From Alcaligenaceae bacterium (GTDB lineage: Bacteria > Pseudomonadota > Gammaproteobacteria > Burkholderiales > Burkholderiaceae_B): a DNA stretch of 64,000 nt. A program made the position numbers and the translations under genes. Below the pieces are notes generated by a model. That model did not search any database. It had not been told where the DNA came from and worked only from the letters and a program-made list of their open reading frames with translations. Position 1 is the stretch's first letter, and the number at the start of each line of letters is the position of its first letter. This document shows positions 7,847 through 39,331 of this stretch, one piece after another. The stretch is taken from the NCBI GenBank assembly GCA_013205565.1, contig JABMMM010000174.1, forward strand, positions 2,290-66,289, given 5' to 3'.

Positions 7847-7931
7847 CCCTTTGTTTGAATTGTATGATGGCGTCTGCGCAACCAGACGTTCATTTTTTAT
7901 TGTTGCGTTTTGCATTTTTTCGGAGAACCAC

Positions 7932-9143: not shown

Positions 9144-9154
9144 GCATAAGCTAG

Positions 9155-9190
9155 GCTTCGGTACGCGCCCGCGTATCGAAGCTGGTTTTT
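9155..9190 (+). terminator. Stem-loop after the binding-protein gene
   Basis: GCTTCGGTACGCG-CC-CGCGTATCGAAGC followed by TGGTTTTT. Confidence 0.6.
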
Positions 9191-9223
9191 GCTGACTCTG
9201 CATCTTTGGCGTTCTGATTCACA

Positions 9224-11097: not shown

Positions 11098-11166
11098 CTT
11101 CTGCGCTGTTGTTTGAACAGCCTCTGAAACAAAAAAAATATTCAGAGGCTGAAGTTCGGAGACAAG

Positions 11167-12806: not shown

Positions 12807-12810
12807 AAAA

Positions 12811-14499: not shown

Positions 14500-14510
14500 A
14501 AGAGTATTTT

Positions 14511-18048: not shown

Positions 18049-18051
18049 CCC

Positions 18052-18861: not shown

Positions 18862-18892
18862 CTCGTACTTACGGTATCAGCGGCAAGCGAAC

Positions 18893-19903
18893 TTATTGCA
18901 CGTCTTTCAAATACCGTTCTGAAAACATCTTTTGCACTTTAGCCATTTGACCGTAATCGACGGTCTTGGCACGTGCATAGTCTGCTGCGGGCAAGAAACG
19001 GGCTTGTACCTCTGCAGGGACAGCCGAGGCTCTCACAGGGCGCAGATAAGCGTTTGCCCACAGTGCTTGCCCCTCGTCAGACAGCACAAAATCAAGAACT
19101 TTTTTACCATTCTCGGCATTTGGGCCTTTGTTCACGAGGCTCATCACGTACGGCACCACCAAGGTGCCCTCAGCGGGAATCACAAAGGCTACGTTCGCCT
19201 TGTCTTTATACTTTGCGCGATAGGCATTGAAATCGTAATCCAACAAGATCGCAATTTCGCCCGACAACACACGCGCGTAAGACGTTTGCTTAGGCACGAT
19301 TGGCTCGTTCTTTTTCAGTGCTTTGAAATACTCAATCGCTGGACCAAAGTTATCAAGCGAACCGCCCCGCGCTTGATTGATCGCCACTGCCCCCACATAG
19401 CCAACAAACGCCGAGGCTGGGTCTAAATAGCCAATCAAGCCTTTGTATTCAGGCTTAAGTAAGTCAGCCCATGACTTAGGAATAGCCTTGCCTTTTAGGG
19501 CGTCAACATTGACCATCAATCCTAAGGTGCCCGAATGAATCGTAAACCAATTACCCGCGGGGTCTTTCAATGCATCTGGAATGTCATTCCAGGCCGCAGG
19601 CTTAAAGGGTGTGACGACCCCGTCCGCCGCCGCCTGAATACCAAAGGTGACCCCCAGATATGTGACGTCTGCAACTGGGCTAGCCTTTTCAGCGACAAGT
19701 TGCGCCAGAGACTGACCAGAGTTTTTATTATCAGGGGGGACGGTGATTCCCGTTTTAGCCTTGATAGCCTTGAGTTGTGATCCCCAGTCTGCCCACTCAG
19801 GTGGGCAGTTGTAACAGATCGCAGACTGTGCCATCGCAACACTTGAAGACAACGCAATACCTAACAGACCCACACGCAATATCTTATTTATTAGAGCTTT
19901 CAT
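18893..19903 (-). CDS. Periplasmic binding protein (AfuA/PhnS/thiamine-like class), ligand unknown
   Basis: Signal peptide MKALINKILRVGLLGIALSSSVAMA; PKSWADLLKPEYKG, IPAEGT; start moved to 19903. Confidence 0.85.
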   Translation of the reverse strand: MKALINKILRVGLLGIALSSSVAMAQSAICYNCPPEWADWGSQLKAIKAKTGITVPPDNKNSGQSLAQLVAEKASPVADVTYLGVTFGIQAAADGVVTPFKPAAWNDIPDALKDPAGNWFTIHSGTLGLMVNVDALKGKAIPKSWADLLKPEYKGLIGYLDPASAFVGYVGAVAINQARGGSLDNFGPAIEYFKALKKNEPIVPKQTSYARVLSGEIAILLDYDFNAYRAKYKDKANVAFVIPAEGTLVVPYVMSLVNKGPNAENGKKVLDFVLSDEGQALWANAYLRPVRASAVPAEVQARFLPAADYARAKTVDYGQMAKVQKMFSERYLKDVQ

Positions 19904-19969
19904 GGTCAGTACCCTCAGTAATGTCGAACACAAAACAATGCTGCAATGCCGCCAGCGAAATGAATCTTC

Positions 19970-20003
19970 AGTTTGCCTCAGAACCGTGACAAGCATATGA
20001 ATC
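19970..20003 (-). promoter_or_regulatory. Pho-box promoter of the ABC-phosphodiesterase operon
   Basis: GATTCAT-ATGC-TTGTCAC (20003-19986), 10 nt, CAAACT (19975-19970). Confidence 0.65.
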
Positions 20004-20069
20004 TGTTGTTGCAAAACTTCAATTTCTCAAAAAGTTAGCTTGTGCAGCATCATTTGGCGAAATGAGGCT

Positions 20070-20465: not shown

Positions 20466-20499
20466 TTGTCATGACCCTGTCACATGAAAGGATGAATAT
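20466..20499 (+). promoter_or_regulatory. Pho-box promoter of the GT28 gene
   Basis: TTGTCAT-GACC-CTGTCAC (20466-20483, near consensus), 10 nt, GAATAT. Confidence 0.75.
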
Positions 20500-23434: not shown

Positions 23435-23944
23435 ATGTTGCAACCATCTGACAGTCGGCTTTCTACAACAAACACCGCACGAGCACAGTGGCTTGCTTTG
23501 CTGGCACGCGCGCCACTAGCGCTGCTCGAAGATGCTCTGCAGGAACATGTTCAGGCAACTCCGCATTGGTTACGCAAACCTGAAACTGGGCTCATGATGG
23601 TCGAAGCCCGTGCAGGTGGTAGTGGCGAGCGCTTTAATCTAGGCGAAATGACCGTGACACGCTGTGCCTTACGCCTATCGAATGCCCCGACACACCGTCA
23701 CGTAGGGATCTCCTACATTGTCGGCCGTTCGCATCGCCATGCTTACTTGGCTGCCGTCGCAGACGCCTTGTTACTAGACGACTCTGAGCACGCGGCGCTT
23801 GAACAAGCTCTGCTCACCCCTGTGAGGCAGTTACTGGCTGCAAATAAAAAAATTCGCCAGGCGCAGGCTGATACCAGCAAGGTCGATTTTTTTACGGTCG
23901 CACGTGAAAGTGGCTCGGATTCAACCGATGAGGAGCAGTCGTGA
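23435..23944 (+). CDS. phnG: C-P lyase subunit PhnG
   Basis: PETGLMMV...GGSGERFNLGEMTVTRC, SKVDFFT. Confidence 0.95.
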   Translation: MLQPSDSRLSTTNTARAQWLALLARAPLALLEDALQEHVQATPHWLRKPETGLMMVEARAGGSGERFNLGEMTVTRCALRLSNAPTHRHVGISYIVGRSHRHAYLAAVADALLLDDSEHAALEQALLTPVRQLLAANKKIRQAQADTSKVDFFTVARESGSDSTDEEQS

Positions 23945-24573
23945 CTACCATTGAACTCTCTGAGCTTGCTGCGGGCTTTAGCGACATTTCACTGGGCAGC
24001 CAAAGCGTCTTCAGAGCAGCTCTAGAGGCTCTGTCTTACCCGGGACGTCCTGTCCTGCTTGAAGTGACGTTTGAAGCGCCCAAGGCTGCACACGCCAGTT
24101 CAAGTGGCTTGCTACTCGCGCTACTAGAGCCTGGCTCGCTGCTTTGGCTTTCACCTAGTCTCGCAGACACCGACGCTGCGACCTGGATTGTGTTTCACAC
24201 GGATTGCAAACTCACACCACATCCGCACGAGGCAGACTTCGCGTGGATCAAACACTGGGATGAACTCCCCGCGTTAGAGTGTTTCGCTTTAGGAACAGAC
24301 GAATATCCAGACCACTCCACAACCTGTGTCATCGATATCGCGGCCCCGAGCACCCAGACAGTCACAGCGCCTTCGCTCACGTTGACGGGCCCCGGCATTG
24401 CGGTGACCTCAACCATTGAGCAGTTGTCGGCCACACCACTTCAAGTGGAAGGCTTCGTTGAGCAATGGGCAAACAATCAAGCTAGCTTTCCGAGGGGAGT
24501 TGACGTCTTTTTTACGACGAGCACGGGTCTGATCGGCCTGCCAAGAACAACCCGTATTCAAGTTTCAGGTTAG
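23941..24573 (+). CDS. phnH: C-P lyase subunit PhnH
   Basis: SQSVFR..L.ALSYPG, GTDEYPD.STT, LTGPGI, FPRGVD, GLPRTT. Confidence 0.95.
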   Translation: MTTIELSELAAGFSDISLGSQSVFRAALEALSYPGRPVLLEVTFEAPKAAHASSSGLLLALLEPGSLLWLSPSLADTDAATWIVFHTDCKLTPHPHEADFAWIKHWDELPALECFALGTDEYPDHSTTCVIDIAAPSTQTVTAPSLTLTGPGIAVTSTIEQLSATPLQVEGFVEQWANNQASFPRGVDVFFTTSTGLIGLPRTTRIQVSG

Positions 24574-24581
24574 GGCATCTT

Positions 24582-25715
24582 ATGTATGTAGCCGTTAAAG
24601 GTGGAGAACAAGCCATCTTGAGTAGTTACCAACTACTCGATCAACAACGTCGTGGCGACCTAAGCGTTCCAGAGTTATCGATCGCACAAATTCGTCAACA
24701 GATGAAACTCGCGGTCGATCGGGTGATGACGGAAGGCTCGGTCTTTGATCCAGAGCTTGCAGCGCTTGCCATCAAACAAGCTTGTGGCGATCTGGTTGAG
24801 GCCATTTTTCTTTTACGCGCCTACCGGGCGACTTTACCCAGACTTGGTTCTACACAACCGCTTGATACAAGCAAGATGGTGCTAGATCGTCGGATCTCTG
24901 CCACGTTTAAGGATTTGCCTGGCGGGCAAGTGCTTGGACCAACCTACGACTATACCCAGCGACTGTTAGATTTCTCGTTGCTGGCAACCAGTGAGCCGGC
25001 CAATCTCAACCCAAGCCACGATGATCATAACAATCGCGCCCAGCTTGAAGATGCGCATTTGTCCCCCCGCGTGATTGATCTGTTAAACCGCGAAGGATTA
25101 ATCGAAACCCATCCGGCCAAGCAAAATGATCCAACGCCTTTCGACCTGACACGCCAGCCCGTGCGCTTCCCGGCTGATCGCAGTACCCGTCTGCAAAATC
25201 TTGCACGTGGTGACGAAGGCTTTTTACTTGCGATGGCCTATTCCACACAACGTGGCTATGCCAACAGCCATCCCTTCGTTGGTGAAATTCGTTTGGGTTC
25301 AGTAGAAATCGAGTTGATACCAGAAGAGCTGGGCTTTGCCATTTCAATCGGCGATATTGAAATCACAGAATGTCAGATGATCAATCAGTTTGCAGGTAGC
25401 AAAACCGAGCCACCTCAGTTCACGCGCGGCTATGGCTTAGCGTTTGGTCATAGCGAGCGTAAGGTAATGGCGATGAGTTTAGTGGATCGCGCTTTGCGTG
25501 CGTCTGAGTTAGGCGAATTGGTGCAATCACCCGCGCAGATGCCCGAGTTCGTCCTTTCGCACAGCGATAGCCTTGAAGCCTCTGGCTTTGTGCAACATCT
25601 TAAGCTGCCTCACTACGTTGACTTTCAATCAGAGCTTGAGCTCGTTAGAAAGATGCGTGCCTCACCCATCCAAACGTCGACCTTGACTGAGGATGTTGGA
25701 GATGAACATGCTTAA
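24582..25715 (+). CDS. phnI: C-P lyase subunit PhnI
   Basis: MYVAVKGGE, RRISATFKDLPGGQ, GFVQHLKLPHYVDFQ. Confidence 0.97.
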   Translation: MYVAVKGGEQAILSSYQLLDQQRRGDLSVPELSIAQIRQQMKLAVDRVMTEGSVFDPELAALAIKQACGDLVEAIFLLRAYRATLPRLGSTQPLDTSKMVLDRRISATFKDLPGGQVLGPTYDYTQRLLDFSLLATSEPANLNPSHDDHNNRAQLEDAHLSPRVIDLLNREGLIETHPAKQNDPTPFDLTRQPVRFPADRSTRLQNLARGDEGFLLAMAYSTQRGYANSHPFVGEIRLGSVEIELIPEELGFAISIGDIEITECQMINQFAGSKTEPPQFTRGYGLAFGHSERKVMAMSLVDRALRASELGELVQSPAQMPEFVLSHSDSLEASGFVQHLKLPHYVDFQSELELVRKMRASPIQTSTLTEDVGDEHA

Positions 25716-26652
25716 AGAGAATGCAACCCGCGCAGCAGCGGGCGCGGCAGTCGCCTCTCACGAAAATCAAGCTGTTGATCAGCATTTTAATTTTGCGTAT
25801 CTCGACGAACGTACCAAGCGCATGATCCGTCGGGCAATTTTAAAAGCCGTTGCCATCCCAGGCTATCAAGTGCCCTTTGGTTCTCGGGAGATGCCTTTGC
25901 CCTATGGCTGGGGCACAGGCGGTATCCAAGTCACAGCCTCGGTGATTGGACCTCACGATGTGCTTAAAGTGATCGATCAAGGCTCCGACGATACCGTCAA
26001 TGCAGTCAATATTCGTCGCTTTTTTCAACGCACGACGAACGTTGAGATTACGACGCAAACGCAAGCCGCTACCCTCATTCAGACGCGTCATCGCATTCCT
26101 GAAATGGCGCTCACAGAAGATCAGATCATCATTTATCAAGTGCCGGTACCCGAACCGATGCAGCGCCTTGAGCCACGCGAACGCGAAACGCGCAGTCTGC
26201 ATGGCTTAGCCGAGTATGGCCTGATGCACGTCAAACTTTATGAAGATATCGCCCGCTATGGTCATATCGCAACGACCTACGACTATCCCGTGCTCGTCAA
26301 TTATCGTTATGTGATGGCACCCTCGCCGATTCCAAAATTTGACAATCCAAAGATGCACATGAATCCCGCGCTCCAACTGTTTGGCGCGGGTCGCGAAAAG
26401 CGTATTTATGCAGTACCTCCGTACACCGCCGTTGAAAGTCTTGGGTTTGAAGACTATCCCTTTGAAATCCAGCGCTGGGACGCCCCCTGTGAACTGTGCG
26501 GCTCAAAAGATAGCTTTCTGGATGAAGTGATTACCGATGATCAAGGTGGCCGGATTTTCGTCTGCTCTGACTCTGATTACTGTGAGACTCAGCAAAACAA
26601 AGTCGAGCAAACGACAGTGACCGCGGCGCAGCCGGTGTTGAAGGATGTTTAA
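25708..26652 (+). CDS. phnJ: C-P lyase radical-SAM subunit PhnJ
   Basis: KAVAIPGYQVPF.SREMP, GWGTGG, C-X2-C...FVCSDSDYC; start placed at 25708, overlapping the phnI stop. Confidence 0.97.
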   Translation: MLKENATRAAAGAAVASHENQAVDQHFNFAYLDERTKRMIRRAILKAVAIPGYQVPFGSREMPLPYGWGTGGIQVTASVIGPHDVLKVIDQGSDDTVNAVNIRRFFQRTTNVEITTQTQAATLIQTRHRIPEMALTEDQIIIYQVPVPEPMQRLEPRERETRSLHGLAEYGLMHVKLYEDIARYGHIATTYDYPVLVNYRYVMAPSPIPKFDNPKMHMNPALQLFGAGREKRIYAVPPYTAVESLGFEDYPFEIQRWDAPCELCGSKDSFLDEVITDDQGGRIFVCSDSDYCETQQNKVEQTTVTAAQPVLKDV

Positions 26653-27442
26653 TTCAATGCCTGTCGACAAACAGTCACCCATCTTACGTGCAACCGGTCT
26701 GAACAAAAGCTACGGCGACCGAGCCGCGCTAATTGACGCAAGCTTTGAGCTTTGGCCGGGCGAAGTTCTTGCCATTGTGGGTGAGTCCGGCTCAGGTAAA
26801 ACCACACTGCTCAATGCACTGGCAGCGCGTGACCAACCCGACTCAGGTTCGGTCGAGTTTCAGTTAAAAGACGGTGCACTCACTGACATCTTCAAGATGA
26901 CTGAGGCACAGCGACGTCTGCTCGCACGCACCGACTGGGGGTTCGTACATCAAAATTCAGCAGACGGCCTAAGAATGGAAGTGTCGGCCGGTGCCAATGT
27001 GGGAGAGCGCTTGATGGCCTTGGGCCAGCGTCATTACGGAAAGCTGCGCGCCACCGCCTGCGACTGGCTTGTGCGCGTTGAAATTGACCCTGCCAGAATC
27101 GATGACTTACCTCGGCATTTTTCAGGTGGTATGCGCCAACGCCTACAGATTGCCCGCAACTTAGTCACTCAGCCCAGACTGGTCTTTATGGATGAGCCGA
27201 CCTCAGGGCTAGACGTCTCAGTGCAAGCCAAATTACTCGATCTCTTGCGCCAGTTGACTCAGCACTTAGGGCTGGCCTCGGTCATTGTCACCCATGATCT
27301 TGCAGTGGCCCGTTTATTAGCCCATCGCATGATTGTGATGCGCCGTGGCCGCATCGTAGAAACAGGCCTGACAGATCAAGTGCTTGACGACCCACAACAT
27401 CCTTACACCCAACTTTTAGTGTCCTCGGTGCTGCAGCCATGA
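26645..27442 (+). CDS. phnK: C-P lyase ATPase PhnK
   Basis: GESGSGKTT, LARTDWGFVHQ, FSGGMRQR, DDPQHPYTQLLVSS. Confidence 0.96.
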   Translation: MFNSMPVDKQSPILRATGLNKSYGDRAALIDASFELWPGEVLAIVGESGSGKTTLLNALAARDQPDSGSVEFQLKDGALTDIFKMTEAQRRLLARTDWGFVHQNSADGLRMEVSAGANVGERLMALGQRHYGKLRATACDWLVRVEIDPARIDDLPRHFSGGMRQRLQIARNLVTQPRLVFMDEPTSGLDVSVQAKLLDLLRQLTQHLGLASVIVTHDLAVARLLAHRMIVMRRGRIVETGLTDQVLDDPQHPYTQLLVSSVLQP

Positions 27443-28164
27443 CCACGCCCGTTTTACGACTCACCAACGTGAGCAAGCAGTTCACTTTGCATCACCAGGG
27501 GATGACGTTACCCGTGTTGCAAAACGTCAGCTTTGAGGTCGCTGCGGGCGAATGCGTGGTGTTGGACGGCACGTCAGGAATGGGCAAGAGCACCTTACTC
27601 AAACTCATTTATTCAAACTATCGGGTAAGTGCGGGTTCGATCCACTACGCACAGGCAGGTCACGCCCCTCTTGAATTAACCACGGCGAGTCCGCGCGTGC
27701 TGATCGATGTCCGTCGCCACCATATTGGATACGTGAGTCAGTTTTTGCGCGTGATCCCAAGGATTTCAACACTTGATCTGGTAGCCGAGCCACTTTTGGC
27801 TGAACTTGGGCATGACGAGCACGCGCTTAAGCAGGCACGTGAACTTGCAGGCTTATGGCTCACGCGTCTACGCATTCCTGAGCGGCTGTGGAGCTTAGCA
27901 CCCGCAACGTTCTCGGGCGGTGAGCAGCAACGCGTCAATATCGCACGCAGCATGATCAAACCGCGCTCGTTACTCCTTCTGGATGAGCCCACTGCCTCAC
28001 TCGATGCCCTCAATACGCAAACAGTGGTGACACTCATCCAAGAAGCGATTGCAGCCGGTGCTGCTGCCGTCGGAATCTTTCACGACCAGGCGGTCGGTAA
28101 TCAACTTGCCACGCGCCGTCTCGACATGACCAATTTTCGGAGCATCACATGCGCGGCTCAGTAG
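27439..28164 (+). CDS. phnL: PhnL ATPase
   Basis: KQFTLH, GYVSQFLRVIPR, APATFSGGEQQR, GIFHD. Confidence 0.96.
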   Translation: MTTPVLRLTNVSKQFTLHHQGMTLPVLQNVSFEVAAGECVVLDGTSGMGKSTLLKLIYSNYRVSAGSIHYAQAGHAPLELTTASPRVLIDVRRHHIGYVSQFLRVIPRISTLDLVAEPLLAELGHDEHALKQARELAGLWLTRLRIPERLWSLAPATFSGGEQQRVNIARSMIKPRSLLLLDEPTASLDALNTQTVVTLIQEAIAAGAAAVGIFHDQAVGNQLATRRLDMTNFRSITCAAQ

Positions 28165-29306
28165 TCATTACTAACGCTCGATTGATTATGAATCACGAGG
28201 TTATCCACGGCTCAATCTCAGTGGTAAACGGTCGTATCGACTCAATCGATTCTGGCCTGAGCACAACCCCAGGTGCGATCGACTTTGAGGGCGACTTTCT
28301 AATGCCGGGCATGATTGAAATTCATACCGATAACTTTGAACGTCACTTGATGCCACGACCAAAGGTCATGTGGGCCGAAAAACCTGCGCTGATTGCGCAT
28401 GATGCCGAGATTGCCTGCGCGGGCATCACAACTGTGTTTGATGCACTCGGCGTAGGCGAGGCAGACACCGAAAGCGTTCGAGGTCAAACTTGGGGGCATG
28501 TACTCTCGGCTCTTGATCAATACACCAAAGACAAACTTCTGCGTGCCGATCACTATATTCATGTGCGCTGTGAACTACCGGCACCAAATACGATTGAACT
28601 TTTTAAACCTTTTGATGGCCACTCGCGTCTCGGCCTCATCTCGTTGATGGACCATACTCCGGGTCAACGCCAATGGGAGGACATTGAGCAAGCGCGCGTG
28701 TACTTTATCGGCAAAAAGGGCTGGAGCCAAGAAAAATTCGAAGACAAGGTCAGCCACGCGACCATGCTGCAAGATCAATTTAGTGCCCCGCACCGACAGT
28801 ATTTCGTTGACTATACAAAACGAACCGGTATCCATCTAGCCAGTCACGATGACACCACCGAGGCACACGTACAGCAGGCCTTTGCTGAAGGTGCCAGCAT
28901 GTCTGAATTCCCGACCACCATCGCCGCTGCGCGATGTGCAAAAAATTTAGGGTTGCTCACCGTGATGGGCGGCCCCAACGTGGTGCGTGGCGGTTCGCAC
29001 TCTGGCAATGTGTCTGCCACTGAATTGGCTAAGCAGGGTCTACTCGACGTGCTGTCCTCCGATTATGTGCCGGGTAGCTTGCTCAGCGCCGTAGCACGTT
29101 TAGTGCAAGAGGGTGTGATGACTTTGCCAGAGGCCGTTGCCACCGTCACACGCCATCCCGCACAAGCAACAGGGCTAAATGATCGCGGTGCGTTAGAAAT
29201 TGGCTTCAGAGCCGACCTCGTTCGCATGCGTCTGCACGAATCGGCAGGTCAACCCAGCCATGCTTTCGCACGCTCAGTGTGGCGCGAGGGTCGCCAGGTT
29301 GTTTGA
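28149..29306 (+). CDS. phnM: alpha-D-ribose 1-methylphosphonate 5-triphosphate diphosphatase
   Basis: PGMIEIHTDN, MDHTPGQRQ, ASHDD, EFPTT, GGSHSGN, LSSDY. Confidence 0.96.
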   Translation: MRGSVVITNARLIMNHEVIHGSISVVNGRIDSIDSGLSTTPGAIDFEGDFLMPGMIEIHTDNFERHLMPRPKVMWAEKPALIAHDAEIACAGITTVFDALGVGEADTESVRGQTWGHVLSALDQYTKDKLLRADHYIHVRCELPAPNTIELFKPFDGHSRLGLISLMDHTPGQRQWEDIEQARVYFIGKKGWSQEKFEDKVSHATMLQDQFSAPHRQYFVDYTKRTGIHLASHDDTTEAHVQQAFAEGASMSEFPTTIAAARCAKNLGLLTVMGGPNVVRGGSHSGNVSATELAKQGLLDVLSSDYVPGSLLSAVARLVQEGVMTLPEAVATVTRHPAQATGLNDRGALEIGFRADLVRMRLHESAGQPSHAFARSVWREGRQVV

Positions 29307-29336
29307 TTTTTTTCTATCGCCCACTTCTGATTTTAA

Positions 29337-29381
29337 TATTCACATAACTGTAAGCCGTTTGTCATGTCAGACGGCCATACT
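29337..29381 (+). promoter_or_regulatory. Pho-box promoter of the phnZ-ABC-PMH operon
   Basis: TATTCAC-ATAA-CTGTAAG-CCGT-TTGTCAT (29337-29365), 10 nt, CATACT. Confidence 0.7.
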
Positions 29382-29637
29382 AATCAGGAACGAAATACGG
29401 ATTTTCTTTAAGACTGCCGCGCGCCACATGACCACTCTGCACAAACGCCTTCACCCCAAAAACCAAGCACTGTGCGACCTTAATCTAAGTTCCAAAAAGA
29501 CGGTCCGATCGCGTCTCACATTCGTGTGTCATGTACAAGTGTTGAACATTGTTTTGAACAACTTTAGTGCCCTAGTGACCGGTCGCGATGTTCTGTCTGC
29601 GCGAATTCGCCGCGCGCTTGTTTAACAAAGGTTTGAA

Positions 29638-30192
29638 ATGGCTTTAACTTTAAATGATGTGACGCAACTACTCACCGTTGAAGGTAACAATCAATACGGC
29701 GGCGAAGCCGTCAGTCAACTTGAGCATGCCCTTCAATGCGCCGCGCTGGCCGAGCAAGCAGGCGAAACACCGCATACGATCACCGCAGCCTTATTGCACG
29801 ATATCGGACATTTGTTAGCCAAAACCGGGCGCGTTCAAGCAAGTGCCAGTAACGGGAGTGGTGACGACTTGCATCAGTATGTTGCCTTGCCTTTTTTGCG
29901 AGGCCTGTTTTCGAACGCGGTCCTTGAACCTATTCGCTTACATGTCGATGCTAAACGCTACCTCTGTGCAACAGACCAGTCGTACTGGACCACCCTTTCG
30001 ACGGCCTCCAAACATAGCCTCATTATGCAAGGCGGTACGTACACCCCACCACAGGCGGCAGAATTTGAAGCGCAATCGTTTGCCCAAGAGGCCGTGCGGC
30101 TTCGTCGCTATGACGATTTGGCCAAAATGCCTGAGGCTGTCACGCCAGCTTTGCCATACTTTTTAAAAATTATACATAGCGTCGCACTTTGA
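29638..30192 (+). CDS. phnZ: PhnZ-like HD-domain di-iron phosphonate oxygenase
   Basis: YGGEAVSQLEHALQ, LLHDIGH, HVDAKRYL, SKHSL.MQGG, RRYDDLAK. Confidence 0.8.
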   Translation: MALTLNDVTQLLTVEGNNQYGGEAVSQLEHALQCAALAEQAGETPHTITAALLHDIGHLLAKTGRVQASASNGSGDDLHQYVALPFLRGLFSNAVLEPIRLHVDAKRYLCATDQSYWTTLSTASKHSLIMQGGTYTPPQAAEFEAQSFAQEAVRLRRYDDLAKMPEAVTPALPYFLKIIHSVAL

Positions 30193-30231
30193 CTCGCTAG
30201 CACATTCACCCGATCTACCTACAGGATTCAC

Positions 30232-31899
30232 ATGCAACTGCTTCACTCTAAACGTTGGTTTCTGAAACTCACTGCGCTCGGGCTGTGTGCGTTAGCGTTG
30301 CCAAGCGCCTTTTCGCAACCCGCAGACACTCGCCCTGTGGTGCGCGTGGCAGTACAGCAATTACTCACCAGCGGTGCGCTAGACCCCTTGCGCGAGCAAA
30401 GTAACGTTGGCACGCGCATTTTGCCGATGATTTATGCCGGTCTGATCCAACTAGATACCGTTGGAGATCTTTCGCCGCGGCCTTCACTTGCTGAATCGTG
30501 GAAGCGCATTGACGCCCAGACCATCGAATTTAAGTTGCGCCCCGGTGTTAAGTTTCACAACGGCGATGAGGTGACCGCTGAAGATGTTGCGTTTAGCTTT
30601 GGCGCTGAGCGCATGTTCGGTACCTCTGCGCCCCGTCAACTCAATCAAGACAGTAAAACGATTGCGGTAGACATCGGTCGCAAGACCACAAGTTCAACAG
30701 CCGGTAGCATGGAATTACCCCCACCTGAGATTACTGCGATCGCACGTAATTTATGGCCCTCTTTGCAAAGCGTCGAGATCGTCGATCGCTACACCGTGCG
30801 CCTGGTCAACGCCATGCCGGACCTCACCCTCGAAGGGCGCATCGCGCGTTTAGGCTCTGAGATCGTTTCAAAGAAAGCCTATATGGCCTCAAAAGACTGG
30901 GCGAGTTGGGCTCAGGCGCCGGTAAGCGCAGGCCCATACAAAGTTAAAGAGATGAAATTAGATCAGTATCTGGTCTTAACTGCGCATGATGACTATTTTG
31001 GCGGAAAGCCTTTAGTCAAAGAAATTCGCTACATGGTGGTGCCTGAAGTCTCTTCACGTATTAACGGCTTGTTATCTGGTCAATACGACTTTGTGACCGA
31101 TATCCCGCCAGATCAGTTCAAAACGATACAAGGCAATGCCAAGCTCGAGGTGGTCGGTGGCCCAGTGCTGAATCACCGTCTGATTACGTTCGACAAAAAT
31201 CACCCAGTCCTTGCAAACCCAAAAGTGCGACAGGCCATGACGCATGCGATTGATCGCAACGCCATCGTCGAAGCAATCTGGGGTGGTCAAACTCGCGTGC
31301 CCGCTGGTCTGCAATTTGAGTTCTACGGCGATATGTTCGTGAAAGGCTGGACAGTACCGAAGTATGACGTGGCGCTTGCCAAAAAGCTTCTGACTGAGGC
31401 TGGCTACAAGGGCGAAGTGATTCACTTCAGAGGCTTGAACAATTACTACACCAATCAGACACAAACTGACCAAATCATGCTCGAGATGTGGCGCGCTGCC
31501 GGCCTGAACGTTCAAATGTCGATGAAAGAAAACTGGGCACAAATTTTTGAGAAAGGGCCAACGCGCGGTGTCCGTGGCTGGTCAAATTCAGCGCCCTTTA
31601 GTGATCCAGTGAGCTCACTGGTTAACCAACATGGACCAAATGGTCAACAACAACAGACCGGCGAATGGACAAACGTTGAGTTCAATAAATTGTCTGACAT
31701 ACTTTCGACCTCAGTTGATCCGGTTGAGCGGCAACAGACCTTTAAACGCATGCTAGAGATTGCCGAACGTGAAGACCCTGCCTACACAGTTCTACATCAG
31801 AGTGCAGTGTTCTATGCCAAACGTAAAGACTTTGTCTGGAAGCCCTCAAAGACCTTCGTCATGGATTTTCGTGCCACAAACCTCACCCCGCCAAAATAA
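30232..31899 (+). CDS. Family-5 periplasmic binding protein, AccA (agrocinopine)-like
   Basis: LAESW..ID, GVKFHNG, GPY; C-terminal half (NNYY...MLEMWR, RGWSN, GPNGQ, KRKDFVWKP...MDFR) resembles A. tumefaciens AccA as I recall it. Confidence 0.8.
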   Translation: MQLLHSKRWFLKLTALGLCALALPSAFSQPADTRPVVRVAVQQLLTSGALDPLREQSNVGTRILPMIYAGLIQLDTVGDLSPRPSLAESWKRIDAQTIEFKLRPGVKFHNGDEVTAEDVAFSFGAERMFGTSAPRQLNQDSKTIAVDIGRKTTSSTAGSMELPPPEITAIARNLWPSLQSVEIVDRYTVRLVNAMPDLTLEGRIARLGSEIVSKKAYMASKDWASWAQAPVSAGPYKVKEMKLDQYLVLTAHDDYFGGKPLVKEIRYMVVPEVSSRINGLLSGQYDFVTDIPPDQFKTIQGNAKLEVVGGPVLNHRLITFDKNHPVLANPKVRQAMTHAIDRNAIVEAIWGGQTRVPAGLQFEFYGDMFVKGWTVPKYDVALAKKLLTEAGYKGEVIHFRGLNNYYTNQTQTDQIMLEMWRAAGLNVQMSMKENWAQIFEKGPTRGVRGWSNSAPFSDPVSSLVNQHGPNGQQQQTGEWTNVEFNKLSDILSTSVDPVERQQTFKRMLEIAEREDPAYTVLHQSAVFYAKRKDFVWKPSKTFVMDFRATNLTPPK

Positions 31900-32881
31900 T
31901 GAACTCGACTGTAGTTGATTCTCACCCGCTACTAAATATCAGCGAACTACGGATCGCGTTCGACCAACGCGGACACACCTCTGAAGTGTTGCATGGCGTC
32001 GATCTGCAAATCGCGCGCGGCGAATCAATTGGTCTGGTGGGTGAGTCGGGCTGCGGCAAGAGCGTCACTTGGTTAGGCGTGCTCGGCTTATTAGGTCAGC
32101 AAGCGCAGGTGACGGGTTCGGTCAAGTTTCAAGGCCGCGAACTTCTCGGTTTATCGGATGCAGAACTTTCGCAGATACGCGGTCGAAAGATCGCGATGAT
32201 TTTTCAAGATCCGAGTTCATCGCTCAATCCAGCCCAGCGCATTGGTGCGCAAATTGCAGAGAGTTTGTCCCTGCATCGAGGCTTGCGCGGCGCGCAGGCA
32301 AAAGCGGAGGTACTTGCCTTATTGGATCACGTTGAGATTCCCGATGCCAAGAGGCGCATCAACGCTTATCCGCATGAACTTTCGGGCGGCATGAATCAAC
32401 GCGTCATGATTGCCATGGCTTTAGCCGGACAACCCGATTTACTCATCGCCGATGAACCCACCACCGCCTTAGATGCGACAGTACAAGCACAAATCTTGGT
32501 GTTGCTGGATACCATCCGGCGCGAGAGCGGTATGGCGCTTGTGACCATTTCGCACGACCTTGGCGTGATCTCAGAGATTAGCGATCGCGTGCTAGTGATG
32601 TATGCAGGCTCTATTGTCGAAAGCGCCCCAAGCCAGACATTATTCAGCGAGGCGCAACATCCTTACAGTCTTGGCCTCTTAGCAGCGATGCCACTGTTGA
32701 ACGCTGAGGTTAACCGTCTGACGACCATACGAGGCAGTCTTCCGCAAACAGGGCAACTCATGCAAGGGTGTCGTTTTGAGCCCCGTTGCGATTTTGCACA
32801 AGAGAACTGTCGCGCCAGCGCCCCTGCGCTCAAGACCATCGCAGTCGGTCACGTCTTAGCCTGCAACCGCAAACTGGCAGC

Positions 32882-32885
<4 letters not shown>
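31899..32885 (+). CDS. Opp/Dpp-type ABC ATPase
   Basis: GESGCGKS, YPHELSGGMNQR, DEPTTALD, C-terminal CRFEPRC. Confidence 0.92.
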
Positions 32886-33883
<998 letters not shown>

Positions 33884-33885
33884 AC

Positions 33886-34815
33886 ATGGGTCGATACCTG
33901 TTGTCTCGCAGTTTGCGCGCATTGCTGACCATTTTCTTAGTGGTTGGTTTTGCTTTCACGATCTTGCGTTTGTCGGGCGACCCAGCGATGATGATTTTAT
34001 CGGCCGATGCCCCACCCGAGGCCATCGCCGCTTTTCGCGCAAGCTGGGGCCTTGACGCACCCCTTTGGCAACAGTTTTGGGGTTACTTAATGAATATTCT
34101 GCAGGGAAACTTCGGGGTGTCAATGCGCGATGCCAGCCCTGCGATGGGGCTTGTGCTTGAAGCGATCCCGGCCACGCTGGCCCTCGCGCTCCCTGCGTTT
34201 GCTCTGAATCTGTTAATTGGCATCCCCGCAGGAATTTTCGCAGCCCTGCACCGAAACTCGTGGATGGATCGTGTCGTGATGAGTTTCTCTGTTGCTGGAC
34301 ACACCTTGCCAAGCTTCGTTCTAGGTCTGTTGTTGGTATTAATTTTCGCAGTGAGTTTGGGTTGGTTACCCAGCGGAGGGTTCAGTGGCGTTGAGCACGC
34401 GGTGTTGCCGATTTTGACCTTGACCGTGGGTGGCGCTGCTGTTTTGGCGCGTTACACACGATCGTCGATGTTAGAAGTCTTAGGCCAACCCTATATTCGG
34501 GCCGCCTCTGCTAAAGGCTTACGTTGGTCGCAAGTCGTGATTCGCCATGCTCTGCCCAACGCAGCATTGCCAATCATCACAATCGCTGGGCTTATGTTCG
34601 GAGGTCTGATCGCAGGCGCGGTTGTTGTCGAAAGCGTATTTTCATGGCCGGGTGTCGGCCGACTCACCGTTTCTGCCGTCGGTAATCGTGATCTGGCCGT
34701 GGTGCAAGCGGCCTTGTTACTTATCACAGTCAGTATGGTCGCAACCAACTTGCTCGTCGATGCGATCTACTGCTTGTTTGATCCGCGCTTACGCACCAGC
34801 GCTGGCGCGCATTAA
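33886..34815 (+). CDS. Opp/Dpp-type permease (B)
   Basis: RLSGDP, YIRAASAKGL, VESVFSWPGVG; start moved to 33886. Confidence 0.92.
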   Translation: MGRYLLSRSLRALLTIFLVVGFAFTILRLSGDPAMMILSADAPPEAIAAFRASWGLDAPLWQQFWGYLMNILQGNFGVSMRDASPAMGLVLEAIPATLALALPAFALNLLIGIPAGIFAALHRNSWMDRVVMSFSVAGHTLPSFVLGLLLVLIFAVSLGWLPSGGFSGVEHAVLPILTLTVGGAAVLARYTRSSMLEVLGQPYIRAASAKGLRWSQVVIRHALPNAALPIITIAGLMFGGLIAGAVVVESVFSWPGVGRLTVSAVGNRDLAVVQAALLLITVSMVATNLLVDAIYCLFDPRLRTSAGAH

Positions 34816-34869
34816 TAGGCGCCAGAAAAAATTGATCCTCGCAGCCTTCACTCTAAAAAGTTATCCGCC

Positions 34870-35742
34870 ATGGCAGTCCTAGCGCCTTCACTTCCAACTA
34901 CCTCGCGTCATTATTTTTGGCAAGAGTACCCACCCCTCGTGATGATCGCAATCGCTTGGATTTTAGGGATATTCATCATCGCCGCATTGGCGGATCTAAT
35001 TGCACCGTACACCTATACAGCGCTTGATCTTAAAGCACGGCTGCAACCACCACTTGGGCTGGGCGGTACGACACGCCATTTGCTTGGCACCGATGAGCTG
35101 GGTCGGGACGTTCTTTCTAGACTATTGATCTCGGTGCAAGTGAGCCTGTTGATCGCCTTTGCCAGCACCTTGATTTCAGCTTTTATTGGACTCGCCTTAG
35201 GATTTTTATCCGCACACTTCAAGGGTTGGCTTGAACAGGTCGTGCTCACCTTGATTGATTTTCAAGCATCAATCCCATTCATGATCATTGCCTTGGCAGT
35301 GTTAGCTTTCTTTGGCAACACGCTGGTACTGTTTATTTGTTTAATGGGCTGCCACGGTTGGGAGCGTAGCGCGCGCATCACACGCAGCCTCACAATCGCG
35401 GCCAATGAACAAGGCTATGCCAACGCTGTGCATGCACTGGGCGCCAGTTCTTGGCGGGTCTACTTTCGGCATATTTTGCCCAATATCGCGAGCACGCTGA
35501 TCGTTAGCATGACGCTCACCTTTCCTGAGGTTATTTTGCTTGAATCAGGCCTGTCTTTTTTAGGCTTAGGTGTGCAACCCCCACTGACTAGCTTAGGCAA
35601 TATGGTGGGTTATGGTCGTGAATATTTACAAACGGCCCCTTGGATTTTGCTCGCTCCGAGCTGCGTCATTGTGTTGACCACCTTCTCGATCAGTCTGACC
35701 GGCGACTGGTTGCGTGACCGGCTAGATCCAACTCTGCGCTGA
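34870..35742 (+). CDS. Opp/Dpp-type permease (C)
   Basis: HLLGTDELGRD, HILPN, ESGLSFLGLG. Confidence 0.92.
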   Translation: MAVLAPSLPTTSRHYFWQEYPPLVMIAIAWILGIFIIAALADLIAPYTYTALDLKARLQPPLGLGGTTRHLLGTDELGRDVLSRLLISVQVSLLIAFASTLISAFIGLALGFLSAHFKGWLEQVVLTLIDFQASIPFMIIALAVLAFFGNTLVLFICLMGCHGWERSARITRSLTIAANEQGYANAVHALGASSWRVYFRHILPNIASTLIVSMTLTFPEVILLESGLSFLGLGVQPPLTSLGNMVGYGREYLQTAPWILLAPSCVIVLTTFSISLTGDWLRDRLDPTLR

Positions 35743-35765
35743 CTTATTTCTTACGGATTCATCTC

Positions 35766-37310
35766 ATGACAACTAAACAAAAGAATGTCTTACTCATTGT
35801 CGTCGATCAGTGGCGCGGCGATACGCTCAAAAATCTTGGGCATCCCGTCATTCAAACCCCCAACATCGAGTCCTTAGCGAGCGAAGGTGTGACCTTTGCC
35901 AAGCATTACACGCAAGCCGTACCATGCGGCCCTGGTCGTGCCTCAATGCTGACCGGTCTTTACATGATGAACCACCGTGCGGTTCAAAACACAATCCCAC
36001 TCGATTCACGGCACACGAATATCGCAAAAGAAGTACGCAAGGCTGGCTATGAACCCGCCTTAGTCGGCTACACCACCACCACTCCCGACCCGCGCGAAAC
36101 AGACGCTCAAGACCCACGCTTTAAAGTCTTAGGGGCAGACATGGAGGGCTGGCGCCCAGTCGGCTCATGGGGGCTAAAAATGGAGGCCTACTTTGCCTGG
36201 CTTGCCTCACAGGGCTTTGCCATGCCAAAAGTGCCTACCGACATCTGGTTGCCACAAGGCGGTACCGAAGCTGATATTGGCGCAACAGCTAAGCCAAGCA
36301 TGGTCCCTGCGCATTTATCCGACACCACTTGGTTTACAGACCGTGCGCTCGAATACCTGCAAGGGACAGAGAACAAGCCATGGTTCTTGCATCTTGGCTA
36401 CTACCGCCCTCACCCGCCCTTTAGCGCTGCGGCACCTTACCACGAGATGTATGACCCAAAAGACTGCCCACCGCCGATTCGGGCCGCAAGCAAAGGCCTT
36501 GAAGCTGAGCAACATCCCCTTCTAGACTTTTATCTTCAGTCCATCGAGCGTCGTCGCTTCTTTGAAAACGGCCAGGGACTTGGCGCAGACATGCAAGAAG
36601 CTGAAGTCCGTCAAATGCGTGCCACGTACTACGGCTTGATGTCTGAGGTGGATCATCACATTGGGCGCGTCTTTGAGTACTTAAAAAAGACAGGCCAGTG
36701 GGAGAACACTTTAATCGTGCTAACAAGCGATCATGGCGAACAATTGGGCGATCATCATTTGTTGGGTAAGCTTGGCTATTTTGATCAGAGCTTTCATATC
36801 CCAATGATTGTTCGTGACCCAAACCCCGAGGCGAATGCCACGCGCGGCAATATTGTTCGGAACTTTACCGAAACGATTGACACCATGCCCACGATCTTGA
36901 GCTGGCTCGAGCGGCCAATTCCCAGAACGTGCGACGGGCATTCACTGTTGCCCTTTATACAAACTGGCATCGCGCCTGCAGACTGGCGTACTGAAGTGCA
37001 TTATGAATTTGACTTTAGAAATATCTTCTACTCAAAACCCGAAGATTTTCTGGGCTTGTCAATGGATCAGTGCGCACTTTCAGTGATTCAAAATCACGAC
37101 TATAAATATGTACACTTTGCCGCGCTGCCGCCACTATTTTTTGATTTGACAAAAGATCCATCACAACTTCACAACGTTGCGCAAGATCCAAGCTACGCTC
37201 TCGCGTTATTAAAAATGACTCAAAAAATGCTTGACTGGAAGCTTTTGCACGCCGACCGCACGTTGACAGGCTATGCGGCCACGCCGGCTGGGTTGGTATC
37301 CAGGCTATGA
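35766..37310 (+). CDS. Phosphonate monoester hydrolase / phosphodiesterase (PMH, alkaline phosphatase superfamily)
   Basis: NVLLIVVDQWR, PCGPGRASMLTG (CxPxR formylglycine site), MNHRAVQNT, GYTTTTPDPR, HLGYYRPHPP, YVHFAALPPLFFDL, closely matching the recalled B. caryophylli/R. leguminosarum PMH. Confidence 0.88.
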   Translation: MTTKQKNVLLIVVDQWRGDTLKNLGHPVIQTPNIESLASEGVTFAKHYTQAVPCGPGRASMLTGLYMMNHRAVQNTIPLDSRHTNIAKEVRKAGYEPALVGYTTTTPDPRETDAQDPRFKVLGADMEGWRPVGSWGLKMEAYFAWLASQGFAMPKVPTDIWLPQGGTEADIGATAKPSMVPAHLSDTTWFTDRALEYLQGTENKPWFLHLGYYRPHPPFSAAAPYHEMYDPKDCPPPIRAASKGLEAEQHPLLDFYLQSIERRRFFENGQGLGADMQEAEVRQMRATYYGLMSEVDHHIGRVFEYLKKTGQWENTLIVLTSDHGEQLGDHHLLGKLGYFDQSFHIPMIVRDPNPEANATRGNIVRNFTETIDTMPTILSWLERPIPRTCDGHSLLPFIQTGIAPADWRTEVHYEFDFRNIFYSKPEDFLGLSMDQCALSVIQNHDYKYVHFAALPPLFFDLTKDPSQLHNVAQDPSYALALLKMTQKMLDWKLLHADRTLTGYAATPAGLVSRL

Positions 37311-37972
37311 AGACAGCCAAAGACTTTGTCGATGGCTGTTCGGCCATCGTCTTTGACCTTGATGGCACGCTCATGCATACCGAGCCCGATATTCGGCGTG
37401 CAGCAAACCAAGCGCTGATTGACTGTGGTTTTCAGACACTGGCGCCTGAACAAGTGATCCCAAACTTATATGGCCCGCTGCCCGACATTTTGGCCTCAGT
37501 GATGGCGCTCGTGCAGGCACCCGCGGTGGCCGCCGAGGAAATTCAACAGGCATACCTAACGCACTACGCGCGCCAAGCGCACGACCATTCGTTTCTATAT
37601 CCAAACGCCTTGGCTTTGCTCGAGCAATTACTTTCGCAAGGTCACCACTTAGCCGTATGCACCAATAAGATTGAGAAGTCGGCTAAGCAGGCGCTTGAAC
37701 GACACGGATTGTCCTCGTACTTTACGGTTGTAACGGGTGGCGATACGACCGCGCATCCCAAGCCTCACCCGTTGCCCTTACTCACGACAATTGACGCGTT
37801 GCAAGCCAAGGCTAGCAACTGCCTGTTGATTGGAGATACACACGTCGACGCGCTCTGTGCAAGCAACTGCGGCATACCCTTTGTTTTTCATTGCAGTGGC
37901 TATGGCGATGACTCAGTGCGACAGTATCCAGTTGCAGCGAGCTTTGCAAACTACGCAGAGATCTGTCGTTAG
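37307..37972 (+). CDS. HAD-family phosphatase (Gph-like)
   Basis: FDLDGTL, CTNK, KPHP, IGDTHVD; overlaps the PMH stop (ATGA). Confidence 0.85.
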   Translation: MKTAKDFVDGCSAIVFDLDGTLMHTEPDIRRAANQALIDCGFQTLAPEQVIPNLYGPLPDILASVMALVQAPAVAAEEIQQAYLTHYARQAHDHSFLYPNALALLEQLLSQGHHLAVCTNKIEKSAKQALERHGLSSYFTVVTGGDTTAHPKPHPLPLLTTIDALQAKASNCLLIGDTHVDALCASNCGIPFVFHCSGYGDDSVRQYPVAASFANYAEICR

Positions 37973-38006
37973 CGTCGCGCGTGCGCTCGCAAGACAGCGG
38001 TTTTCG

Positions 38007-39257
38007 TTAGCTCAGCGCCTCAGGTAAAACTGTTGTCTTAGCCTTCGAGGTTGCCAGAACTGCACTGGGATCCTCATTCGCGATCAATGATCTAAAAATG
38101 CCCTCGGTACGCGTGATCACCGAACTCCAATCGCGATCCACCGCAGTTTGACGCGCTGCGACTTGTATTTGAGTGCGTAAGGCGGGGTCTTCAACGACTT
38201 GTCGGGCGGCCTCGAAAAGCTGCTCTTCTTGATTAGGCGCAAGGACCATGCCGTTGCGCTTATGTTCGATTAACTGCCCCGCTGCGGCATGGTTGTAAGC
38301 CACTACCGCCAAGCCACTTGCCATCGCCTCAATCGTGACGTTACCAAAGGTCTCTGTCAGACTCGGAAAGATAAACAAATCTGCGCTAGCGTAGTGCTTC
38401 GCCAGATCCTGGCCAGTACGCGTACCCGCAAAGATCGCTTCAGGGATACTGCGTTCGAGGGCGTGACGCAGTGGGCCGTCTCCGACGATGACTAGTTTTA
38501 CTGGTAGCCCCTGCGCTTGCAAGGATTTAAAACAGCGAACAACAATATCCAGATTTTTTTCAACCGCTAGACGGCCAACGGAGAGCAGCACTTGTGTGTC
38601 TGCTGTCGCGCCCCAGCTCTGACGCAGGGACTCGTCTCGTTTTGCGGGCGAAAAGTTTTCTGTGTCCACACCACGCGGTACAACCATCAAGCGATCAAAA
38701 CCAATCTTTGAAAGCTCGGCCATCAAGCCTTGGGTCGGCACCATTGTGCAGTGCGTCGCATTATGGAATTTGCGCATATAGGCCACAATTGCGCCCTTTA
38801 GCCAGCCAAAGCCATAGAACTGACTGTAAGCATGAAAGTTTGTTCTGAAATCTGAACTCGTTGGTATTTTGAGCTTACGCGCTGCCCGCGAAGCAGACCA
38901 ACCTAAGGGACCCTCTGTCGCGATATGCACAAGATCAGGTCGCTGCTTGAGCCATAATTTTTGCAACGCGCCTTGCGCTGGTAACCCCATACGCAGTTGT
39001 TTGTACATTGGAATCGGCGCGCCACGCACCAATACCTCTTGGTAGCGCGAATCAACCGCTGCCTCGTGATCACTATGATTCCTAGGCCTGACCAGCATGA
39101 GTTCATGCCCACGCGCACGCAAGCCCTCTACGATCTTTGAAACAGTGTGTGCGACCCCATTAATATCTGGCGGATAGGTTTCTGTCACCAACGCTATTCT
39201 AAGACTAGGTTTGTCAGGGTAGATGCGATCGACTTGAATGGGGGCGTATTCGGTCAT
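38007..39257 (-). CDS. GT4 glycosyltransferase (Agt-like diacylglycerol glycosyltransferase candidate)
   Basis: VTETYPPDINGV, HIATEGPLG, SVGRLAVEKN, FPSLTETFG..EAMASG; start moved to ATG at 39257 because the promoter overlaps the track's TTG. Confidence 0.85.
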   Translation of the reverse strand: MTEYAPIQVDRIYPDKPSLRIALVTETYPPDINGVAHTVSKIVEGLRARGHELMLVRPRNHSDHEAAVDSRYQEVLVRGAPIPMYKQLRMGLPAQGALQKLWLKQRPDLVHIATEGPLGWSASRAARKLKIPTSSDFRTNFHAYSQFYGFGWLKGAIVAYMRKFHNATHCTMVPTQGLMAELSKIGFDRLMVVPRGVDTENFSPAKRDESLRQSWGATADTQVLLSVGRLAVEKNLDIVVRCFKSLQAQGLPVKLVIVGDGPLRHALERSIPEAIFAGTRTGQDLAKHYASADLFIFPSLTETFGNVTIEAMASGLAVVAYNHAAAGQLIEHKRNGMVLAPNQEEQLFEAARQVVEDPALRTQIQVAARQTAVDRDWSSVITRTEGIFRSLIANEDPSAVLATSKAKTTVLPEALS

Positions 39258-39297
39258 CTGAGCTCTTTCATACCAAGCAGTTTCTAGTATGTTTATC

Positions 39298-39331
39298 ACT
39301 GTACTCAAATTATGTAACCGTTCGATGACAG
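39298..39331 (-). promoter_or_regulatory. Pho-box promoter of the GT4 gene
   Basis: CTGTCAT-CGAA-CGGTTAC (39331-39314), 10 nt, TACAGT. Confidence 0.75.

Follow-up and report, generated by a model that had tools for sequence, protein, structure and literature searches.

A PehA-type phosphonate monoester hydrolase gene in a predicted operon with an AccA-like importer next to C-P lyase genes

Results and discussion

A predicted eight-gene operon carries pehA

The DNA analyzed here, called the window at its full length of 64,000 nucleotides, comes from an Alcaligenaceae bacterium (GenBank assembly GCA_013205565.1, contig JABMMM010000174.1, positions 2,290 to 66,289 of the forward strand). Within it, eight consecutive genes on the + strand run from an HD-domain oxygenase to a HAD phosphatase, and the seventh, pehA (35766-37310, +), is predicted to encode a phosphonate monoester hydrolase/phosphodiesterase (PMH, or PehA) of the formylglycine type. 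For almost two decades PMH has served as a model of catalytic promiscuity, and to our knowledge no natural substrate has been agreed upon. The characterized enzymes, those of Jonas 2008 and Dotson 1996, reportedly hydrolyze both phosphodiesters and phosphonate monoesters.

The first gene of the operon, an HD-domain oxygenase of the PhnZ family (Phn-HD; 29638-30192, +), reaches 227.6 bits in TIGR03276 (cut-off 214.6), stays under the cut-offs of the PhnZ1 and TmpB equivalogs, and matches TmpB (expect value, E, 1.9e-28) and PhnZ (E 4e-24) among solved structures. It is followed by an AccA-like periplasmic substrate-binding protein (SBP) with an SBP_bac_5 domain and a signal peptide (30232-31899, +), two Opp-type ATP-binding cassette (ABC) ATPases with ABC_tran and oligo_HPY domains (31899-32885 and 32882-33883, both +; the probable ATG of the second, at 32882, overlaps the stop of the first), two BPD_transp_1 permeases (33886-34815 and 34870-35742, both +), pehA, and lastly a HAD-IA phosphatase (37307-37972, +). 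This phosphatase resembles phosphoglycolate phosphatases (HAD_2 E 3.6e-35; phosphoglycolate phosphatases in the PDB, E 5e-24) and scores 148.7 bits in PGP_bact, under the cut-off of 180. The intergenic distances along the operon are 39, -1, -4, 2, 54, 23, and -4 nt, the last being an ATGA in which the pehA stop and the HAD start overlap. Scans for sigma-70 promoters and terminators inside the operon returned nothing above shuffled expectation, no regulator gene lies within it, and a glycosyltransferase gene (GT4, 39308, -) converges on its 3′ end. No PhnY-type 2-oxoglutarate dioxygenase was found among the ten genes from phnM to this glycosyltransferase (28149-39308); the rest of the genome was not searched for one. 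A preliminary description of this DNA had the PMH co-transcribed with a PhnZ-like gene and an importer beside C-P lyase, and saw in this a lead to its native role. The eight tightly spaced same-strand genes, together with the Pho-box-like promoter and the conserved pairing of importer and PehA described below, support that view, and the eight genes are probably co-transcribed.

PehA is a full-length PMH with an intact formylglycine site

The pehA open reading frame (ORF) specifies 514 residues with a Pfam Sulfatase domain (E 1.6e-56). The product passes NCBIfam NF045661, the equivalog model for ‘phosphoric/sulfuric ester hydrolase PehA’, at 927.5 bits (cut-off 900). Its top solved structures are RlPMH from Rhizobium leguminosarum (2vqr, E 4.9e-213) and BcPMH from Burkholderia caryophylli (2w8s, E 2.7e-207), members of the same family that align end to end over residues 3-513, a span that includes the C-terminal oligomerization tail of the full-length PMH architecture. 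Global identity to RlPMH, the gene for which was taken from plasmid pRL9, is 60%, and all 11 active-site positions compared are identical: PehA D14, Q15, C54, R58, N75, Y102, T104, H216, D322, H323, and K335 correspond to RlPMH D12, Q13, C57, R61, N78, Y105, T107, H218, D324, H325, and K337. The RlPMH residues compared are in part those reportedly described by Jonas et al. 2008. Two of them, K337 and Q13, have been confirmed (PMC5870055).

The C-x-P-x-R motif in which the formylglycine arises is intact in PehA (A-V-P-C54-G-P-G-R58). The predicted start lies two residues ahead of that of RlPMH, and the ORF opens at the first start codon past an upstream in-frame stop, so an N-terminal extension is impossible. 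This implies that PehA has no leader peptide and is cytoplasmic. Comparison with five close relatives gave ratios of nonsynonymous to synonymous substitution rates of 0.04-0.05, indicating purifying selection. The near-continuous motif match to characterized PMHs, the absent signal peptide, and the intact CGPGR site that had been noted earlier were thus all borne out. On sequence grounds, the ORF at 35766-37310 encodes a genuine PehA/PMH, in itself an ordinary and readily annotated member of a known family.

The window had been described as lacking a formylglycine-generating enzyme (FGE). In a search of the whole genome, FGE-sulfatase-domain matches are indeed absent from the window's contig; all four loci lie on other contigs, and one of them, on contig C296, is a true FGE and the only one of the assembly. 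It matches bacterial and human FGE structures at E 5e-61 and carries both catalytic cysteines in the two-cysteine motif RGGSFLCHESYCNRYR. The gene (C296:4552-5145, L001) is cut by the contig end and lacks its N-terminus. An anSME was not found in the assembly, which is 96% complete. The other three loci were rejected as maturases, the one on C194 as SenA/EgtB-like and those on C332 and C21 as cysteine-less and pFGE-like. The C194 protein (L004:122-1252, -) resembles selenoneine synthase SenA, with 416.9 bits against an equivalog cut-off of 420, and contains an EgtB-related signature domain. Three further CxPxR sulfatase-family genes reside in the genome, on C155, C187, and C30.

C-P lyase genes, a phnCDE scar, and a Pho-box-like promoter precede the operon

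Directly upstream of the operon lie the C-P lyase genes phnGHIJKLM (23435-29306, all +). NCBIfam equivalogs identify phnG (23435-23944), phnH (23941-24573), phnK (26645-27442), phnL (27439-28164), and phnM (28149-29306), while phnJ (25693-26652) is recognized by PF06007 at 25783-26598 and phnI (24582-25715) is named by its position and tblastn to relatives only. The 330-bp stretch after phnM (29307-29637) was rejected as a simple intergenic region. In six close relatives, phnC-phnD-phnE (∼2.7 kb) occupy the interval between phnM and the HD gene, and the window retains, in two frames, PhnC residues ∼2-30 and ∼70-95 (tblastn E 4e-9), along with the final ∼12 codons of phnE. We therefore assign a phnC′-′phnE deletion scar (29428-29625, +), in which the phosphonate importer phnCDE survives as a ∼200-bp pseudogene remnant. 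A still shorter scar with the same phnE end is present in four other relatives, including one complete chromosome. Because at least five PhnD-family binding proteins are encoded elsewhere in the genome, the loss of phnCDE is local.

Between the phnM stop and the phnC start or its remnant, we found a Pho-box-like promoter element (29339-29381, +; pattern match at 29348-29365) of the sequence TTCACATAA-CTGTAAG-ccgt-TTGTCAT, with CATACT 10 nt downstream. No position of this block varies among the seven related lineages aligned, whether or not they have phnCDE. It has the form of a Pho box in place of a -35 element, which suggests that the operon is under Pho control. Pho-box-like repeats also occur upstream of phnG. 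Outside the near clade, 8 of 29 lineages have a match of at least 11/14 ahead of the SBP gene, as compared with 2.7% of 3000 random 450-bp windows. Among the alphaproteobacteria, one locus (L007) has an 11/14 match and another (L068) has none. Two more matches within the window, at 20466-20483 (ahead of a GT28-like gene, 20508, +) and at 39314-39331 (ahead of the GT4 gene), would fit a phosphorus-stress island surrounding the operon.

The importer resembles that of the acc operon

The top PDB matches of the SBP are all AccA, the agrocinopine/agrocin-84 binding protein (E 2.6e-85; next family, 8.5e-34), and its identity to AccA of pTiC58 is 36%. AccA holds the phosphate of its ligand through N54, S419, Y375, and Y376 (PMC4526662). 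These residues and N284 are invariant across 33 PehA-linked SBPs. The SBP pocket is more hydrophobic and less polar than that of AccA. ‘Glu504’ from the published AccA pocket list was left out, as it corresponds to a Trp in the PDB chain as well as in the pTiC58 record.

The likeness extends to gene order. As in the acc operon of Agrobacterium Ti plasmids (accR-accABCDEFG), a homologous SBP (E 1e-85) of the AccA family is followed by Opp-type ABC components in the order A-B-C-D-E, and the full succession of SBP, ATPase, ATPase, permease, permease, hydrolase, and phosphatase equals accABCDE-F-G; accF is missing from the PLSDB table, and its place was taken from the AccA paper. The proposed logic is also alike, in that a phosphodiester is imported, cleaved in the cytoplasm, and dephosphorylated. 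The differences are that the window has the sulfatase-fold PehA where acc has the GDPD protein AccF, a HAD phosphatase where acc has the inositol monophosphatase-type AccG, no AccR, a Pho-box-like promoter, and replaced pyranose-binding residues in the SBP. The locus thus appears to work like acc and yet, with AccF, AccG, and AccR all lacking, is not a member of it. The homology and matching gene order might suggest that a sugar phosphodiester is taken up to provide carbon or to act as a cue, and not to supply phosphorus, and sugar-type regulators and sugar genes do flank the Rhizobium, Sinorhizobium, and Agrobacterium versions. In the window, however, there is no sugar regulator or sugar-catabolic gene, a Pho-box-like promoter stands instead, and the pyranose contacts of AccA are lost, so we consider such carbon or signal use very unlikely.

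The importer and PehA form a conserved module

To follow the module, we compared 80 loci encoding PehA homologs of 63-96% identity by tblastn of the window proteins. Since the ORF caller produced spurious antisense ORFs in high-GC loci (L006, L007, L054, L057, and L063), tblastn and the record annotation were used there. The orthologous importer lies directly 5′ of pehA in 11/11 near relatives, 25/30 other betaproteobacteria, 3/3 alphaproteobacteria, and 0/13 members of a Reyranella-like clade; for the HAD gene directly 3′, the corresponding counts are 13/15, 23/39, 0/4, and 0/19. Overall, the SBP-ATPase-ATPase-permease-permease-PehA block is present in 39 of the 44 informative beta- and alphaproteobacterial loci and the HAD gene in 36 of 54 betaproteobacterial loci. 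The conserved core is the importer and PehA, joined in many cases by the HAD phosphatase, and throughout the near clade the HD oxygenase is the operon's first gene. Wider flanks are mostly lineage-specific (porin, integrase, Bug-family TctC, LysR, EamA, LpxC, and others) and, apart from the phosphorus-related cassettes, uninformative.

The gene for RlPMH is likewise joined to an orthologous AccA-type importer. In its source, pRL9 of Rhizobium johnstonii 3841, and in Pseudoroseomonas, the order is inverted, with pehA first and the same five transporter genes following. In the window, by contrast, pehA is seventh, a PhnZ-like oxygenase comes first and a HAD phosphatase last, and the unit stands after C-P lyase, while the Rhizobium gene has sugar and sulfur neighbors. 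Cultured carriers of the module include Pollutimonas nitritireducens (JR1/69-2-13), Jezberella montanilacus (MWH-P2sevCIIIb), Advenella sp. RU8, and R. johnstonii 3841.

Unrelated phosphodiesterases replace PehA behind related importers

In R. etli, S. meliloti, and A. larrymoorei, the importer is followed by a GDPD phosphodiesterase in the place of PehA, a non-orthologous DISPLACEMENT. The SBP of a GDPD-paired importer is 65% identical to the PehA-linked SBP of R. leguminosarum and has the same pocket residues. Such a clean non-orthologous displacement behind near-orthologous importers argues that the phosphodiesterase activity is physiological. More distant AccA-family importers are paired with an NPP-type hydrolase in Bradyrhizobium and with a calcineurin-like phosphodiesterase in Mesorhizobium. 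One transporter family is thus combined with four unrelated phosphodiester-cleaving families, and this is our strongest argument that the phosphorus ester activity of PehA is the selected one.

In Bradyrhizobium sp. 183 (L101, plasmid, 6373-14920), the NPP-type hydrolase belongs to PF01663, and a phosphoenolpyruvate mutase-family gene lies divergently upstream, a possible further phosphonate link. On plasmid pMspAR02c of Mesorhizobium sp. AR02 (L106, 493-14259), the AccA-family SBP, the metallophosphoesterase, and the Opp-type ABC transporter lie inside a C-P lyase operon, flanked by phnL and DUF1045-phnN, at the expected site of phnCDE. The L106 phosphodiesterase is 37% identical to a calcineurin-like phosphodiesterase of the window.

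Recurrent linkage to phosphonate and phosphorus genes

That calcineurin-like (SpdA/CpdA-like) phosphodiesterase of the window lies with a PhnS/T/U/V-like ABC importer in a cassette at 15379-20014 (-), the ortholog of one in the Zwartia group (L027-L030, L033), where the metallophosphoesterase and PhnSTUV-like ABC cassette stands directly after pehA-HAD. Other putative phosphorus-stress genes abound in the window; besides this cassette they include a PlcP-like gene and glycosyltransferases. Elsewhere, the module abuts phnG-M and a PlcP-like gene (L039) or, in Lautropia (L057), an HD oxygenase, and an independent juxtaposition with C-P lyase was seen in L097-L099. Another family of the order has a PMH-like gene (46-47% identity) flanked by an HD oxygenase and phnG-M. 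Two PMH-like genes beside C-P lyase, from two genomes of another family (G328:C62:14171-15661 and G015:C28:233034-234515), contain one in-frame TGA each within the match, which could be a sequencing error, a pseudogene, or recoding. With only 2 of 401 sampled genomes of the order passing the PehA cut-off, order-wide co-occurrence of PehA and PhnJ was too sparse, and 49 PehA-bearing genomes were compared with the order background. PhnJ occurs in 39/49 of the former and in 32/401 of the even sample of the order.

These linkages bear on two rival explanations. In the first, a narrower version of the function proposed below, PehA acts by nature on phosphonate monoesters specifically, such as methylphosphonate, 2-aminoethylphosphonate (2-AEP), or 1-hydroxy-2-AEP esterified with glycerol or a sugar and originating in phosphonolipids, phosphonoglycans, or dissolved organic matter, and the operon is dedicated to feeding C-P lyase and PhnZ. 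This would agree with the placement of pehA on one strand and behind one Pho promoter with a PhnZ-like gene right after phnGHIJKLM, with an ancestral arrangement that held phnCDE in the operon's unit, with PMH-like genes repeatedly lying beside HD oxygenase and C-P lyase genes in other families, with the AccA-family importer inside the Mesorhizobium C-P lyase operon, with the PhnJ counts, and with the more hydrophobic SBP pocket. An enzyme of this kind has also been postulated for phosphonate esters of dissolved organic matter (Sosa et al. 2017, PMC5649143). However, a HAD phosphatase, the commonest partner after the importer, could do nothing with a phosphonate product. A classical phosphodiesterase of the GDPD type serves near-orthologous importers, and PhnJ was not found in 10 of the 49 PehA genomes, many of them incomplete metagenome-assembled genomes (MAGs). 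We regard this dedicated salvage as rather doubtful.

In the second, phosphodiesters are the only substrates, and the proximity of C-P lyase reflects Pho-regulon clustering in a phosphorus-stress island with no handover to C-P lyase or PhnZ. The many phosphorus-stress genes of the window, the importer-PehA-HAD units that in most lineages have no phn genes nearby, and the GDPD displacement are all in keeping with this. It does not account well for the HD oxygenase heading the same operon in the whole near clade, nor for the C-P lyase/HD juxtaposition that recurs in unrelated arrangements, and it seems unlikely.

Proposed function

Taken together, the operon probably serves, under Pho control, to import phosphodiesters and/or phosphonate monoesters and to cleave them in the cytoplasm; their products would be passed to the HAD phosphatase, C-P lyase, and the PhnZ-like oxygenase. 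The AccA-family SBP and Opp-type ABC transporter would import an anionic organophosphorus diester, R-O-P(O2-)-X, in which X is O-R′ in a phosphodiester or an alkyl group in a phosphonate monoester. Conversion of PehA Cys54 to formylglycine would fall to the FGE encoded on another contig, and the matured enzyme would hydrolyze the P-O ester bond in the cytoplasm. A phosphomonoester product could then be dephosphorylated by the translationally coupled HAD phosphatase. For a phosphonate product, the next enzyme could be the C-P lyase encoded alongside or, where the product is 1-hydroxylated, the PhnZ-like oxygenase heading the operon. The direction of transport, the class of substrate, and the handover of products are what we infer here. 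Phosphodiesters are favored by the HAD partner and the GDPD displacement, phosphonate monoesters by the links to C-P lyase and PhnZ and by the less polar pocket of the SBP.

Several observations weigh against this proposal. The argument is built from gene identities, gene order, conservation, and motifs, and the compared genomes are related, so the ratios overstate independence. PehA of the Reyranella-like clade (L069-L087, 64% identity) has no importer and lies beside protocatechuate genes, and physical linkage to C-P lyase or PhnZ is confined to few lineages, which makes phosphodiesters at least as likely as phosphonate monoesters as the ancestral substrate. The Pho-box match of the Rhizobium pehA, at 10/14, is weak. 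The pyranose contacts of AccA are replaced (Y145→L, W178→L or variable, E434→Q, and E510→F), with E510→F and E434→Q invariant in the 33 PehA-linked orthologs; relative to the pyranose-2-phosphate recognition template (N54, N284, S419, E510, and Y375/Y376), the phosphate clamp is kept and the sugar anchor lost. The ligand is therefore probably not an agrocinopine-type sugar-2-phosphate. Lastly, sulfur-scavenging genes of the SfnB/LLM type lie within 10 kb of pehA in Rhizobium and Pseudoroseomonas. These genes in two alphaproteobacteria, the sulfatase fold with its formylglycine site, and the NCBI name ‘phosphoric/sulfuric ester hydrolase’ could be taken to mean that the promiscuous sulfatase activity of PehA is the selected one, for sulfur scavenging. 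We found no sulfur-assimilation gene near pehA in the window or in the sampled betaproteobacterial loci, a phosphate clamp is retained in the SBP that accompanies PehA, its companion enzymes act as a phosphatase or cleave C-P bonds, and the three other CxPxR sulfatase-family genes of the genome are available for that role, which renders a sulfatase function highly improbable.

C-P lyase cannot act on esters, the form in which much of the phosphonate and organic phosphorus in nature occurs. PehA and the AccA-type importer might, as a tentative extension that we consider possible rather than probable, provide a de-esterification step that has been missing from phosphonate cycling: esterified phosphonates, such as glyceryl or sugar esters of those named above and from the same sources, would be imported and the phosphonate freed in the cytoplasm, after which C-P lyase or the PhnZ-like oxygenase would release phosphate. 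If so, given that C-P lyase yields methane from methylphosphonate, PehA of freshwater Burkholderiales would be tied to aerobic methane formation in lakes. More generally, the locus gives a long-studied enzyme with no agreed natural role a concrete and testable job, opening imported phosphorus diesters inside the cell, and narrows the question to one binding protein, one enzyme, and one promoter.

Relation to known systems

In the Ugp/GlpQ-UgpQ system of the Pho regulon, ABC import of a glycerophosphodiester is coupled to a phosphodiesterase for phosphorus supply. The operon would be like it in joining Pho-controlled phosphodiester import to a phosphodiesterase, and the two are expected to differ in that the binding protein (family 1), the transporter, and the hydrolase fold are all unrelated. 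With the PhnY/PhnZ pathway and C-P lyase operons bearing phnCDE, it shares the PhnZ-family oxygenase and phnGHIJKLM, and relatives retain phnCDE there; unlike these, it is without a PhnY-type dioxygenase, its phnCDE is a scar, and an ester hydrolase and an AccA-type importer are added. What appears to be new in this setting is an acc-type import-and-cleave design under putative Pho control, with PehA replacing AccF, joined to C-P lyase.

In the literature, Sosa et al. 2017 proposed a PMH as the enzyme that frees phosphonates from marine dissolved organic matter, on the basis of a 31-34% similar protein with no analysis of its context (PMC5649143). A 2026 paper finds pmh beside phnWX and phnWYA genes, and ester hydrolysis goes unmentioned in a 2023 review of phosphonate degradation by microbes (PMC10574752). 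Among the papers searched, none that mentions PMH was also retrieved for AccA or agrocinopine.

Minor observations

The flanks of pehA in the Reyranella-like clade comprise a 2-hydroxyacid dehydrogenase gene, pcaH, and pcaB, and the PehA family is thus not uniformly tied to the transport module. Of the records in question (L008, L009, L016, L018, L020, L022, L028, L030, and L033), several from freshwater-lake MAGs that are closest to the window are titled ‘Bordetella parapertussis’. Others of the same clade are labeled Alcaligenaceae, Burkholderiaceae, or even Methylopumilus, and these names look misassigned.

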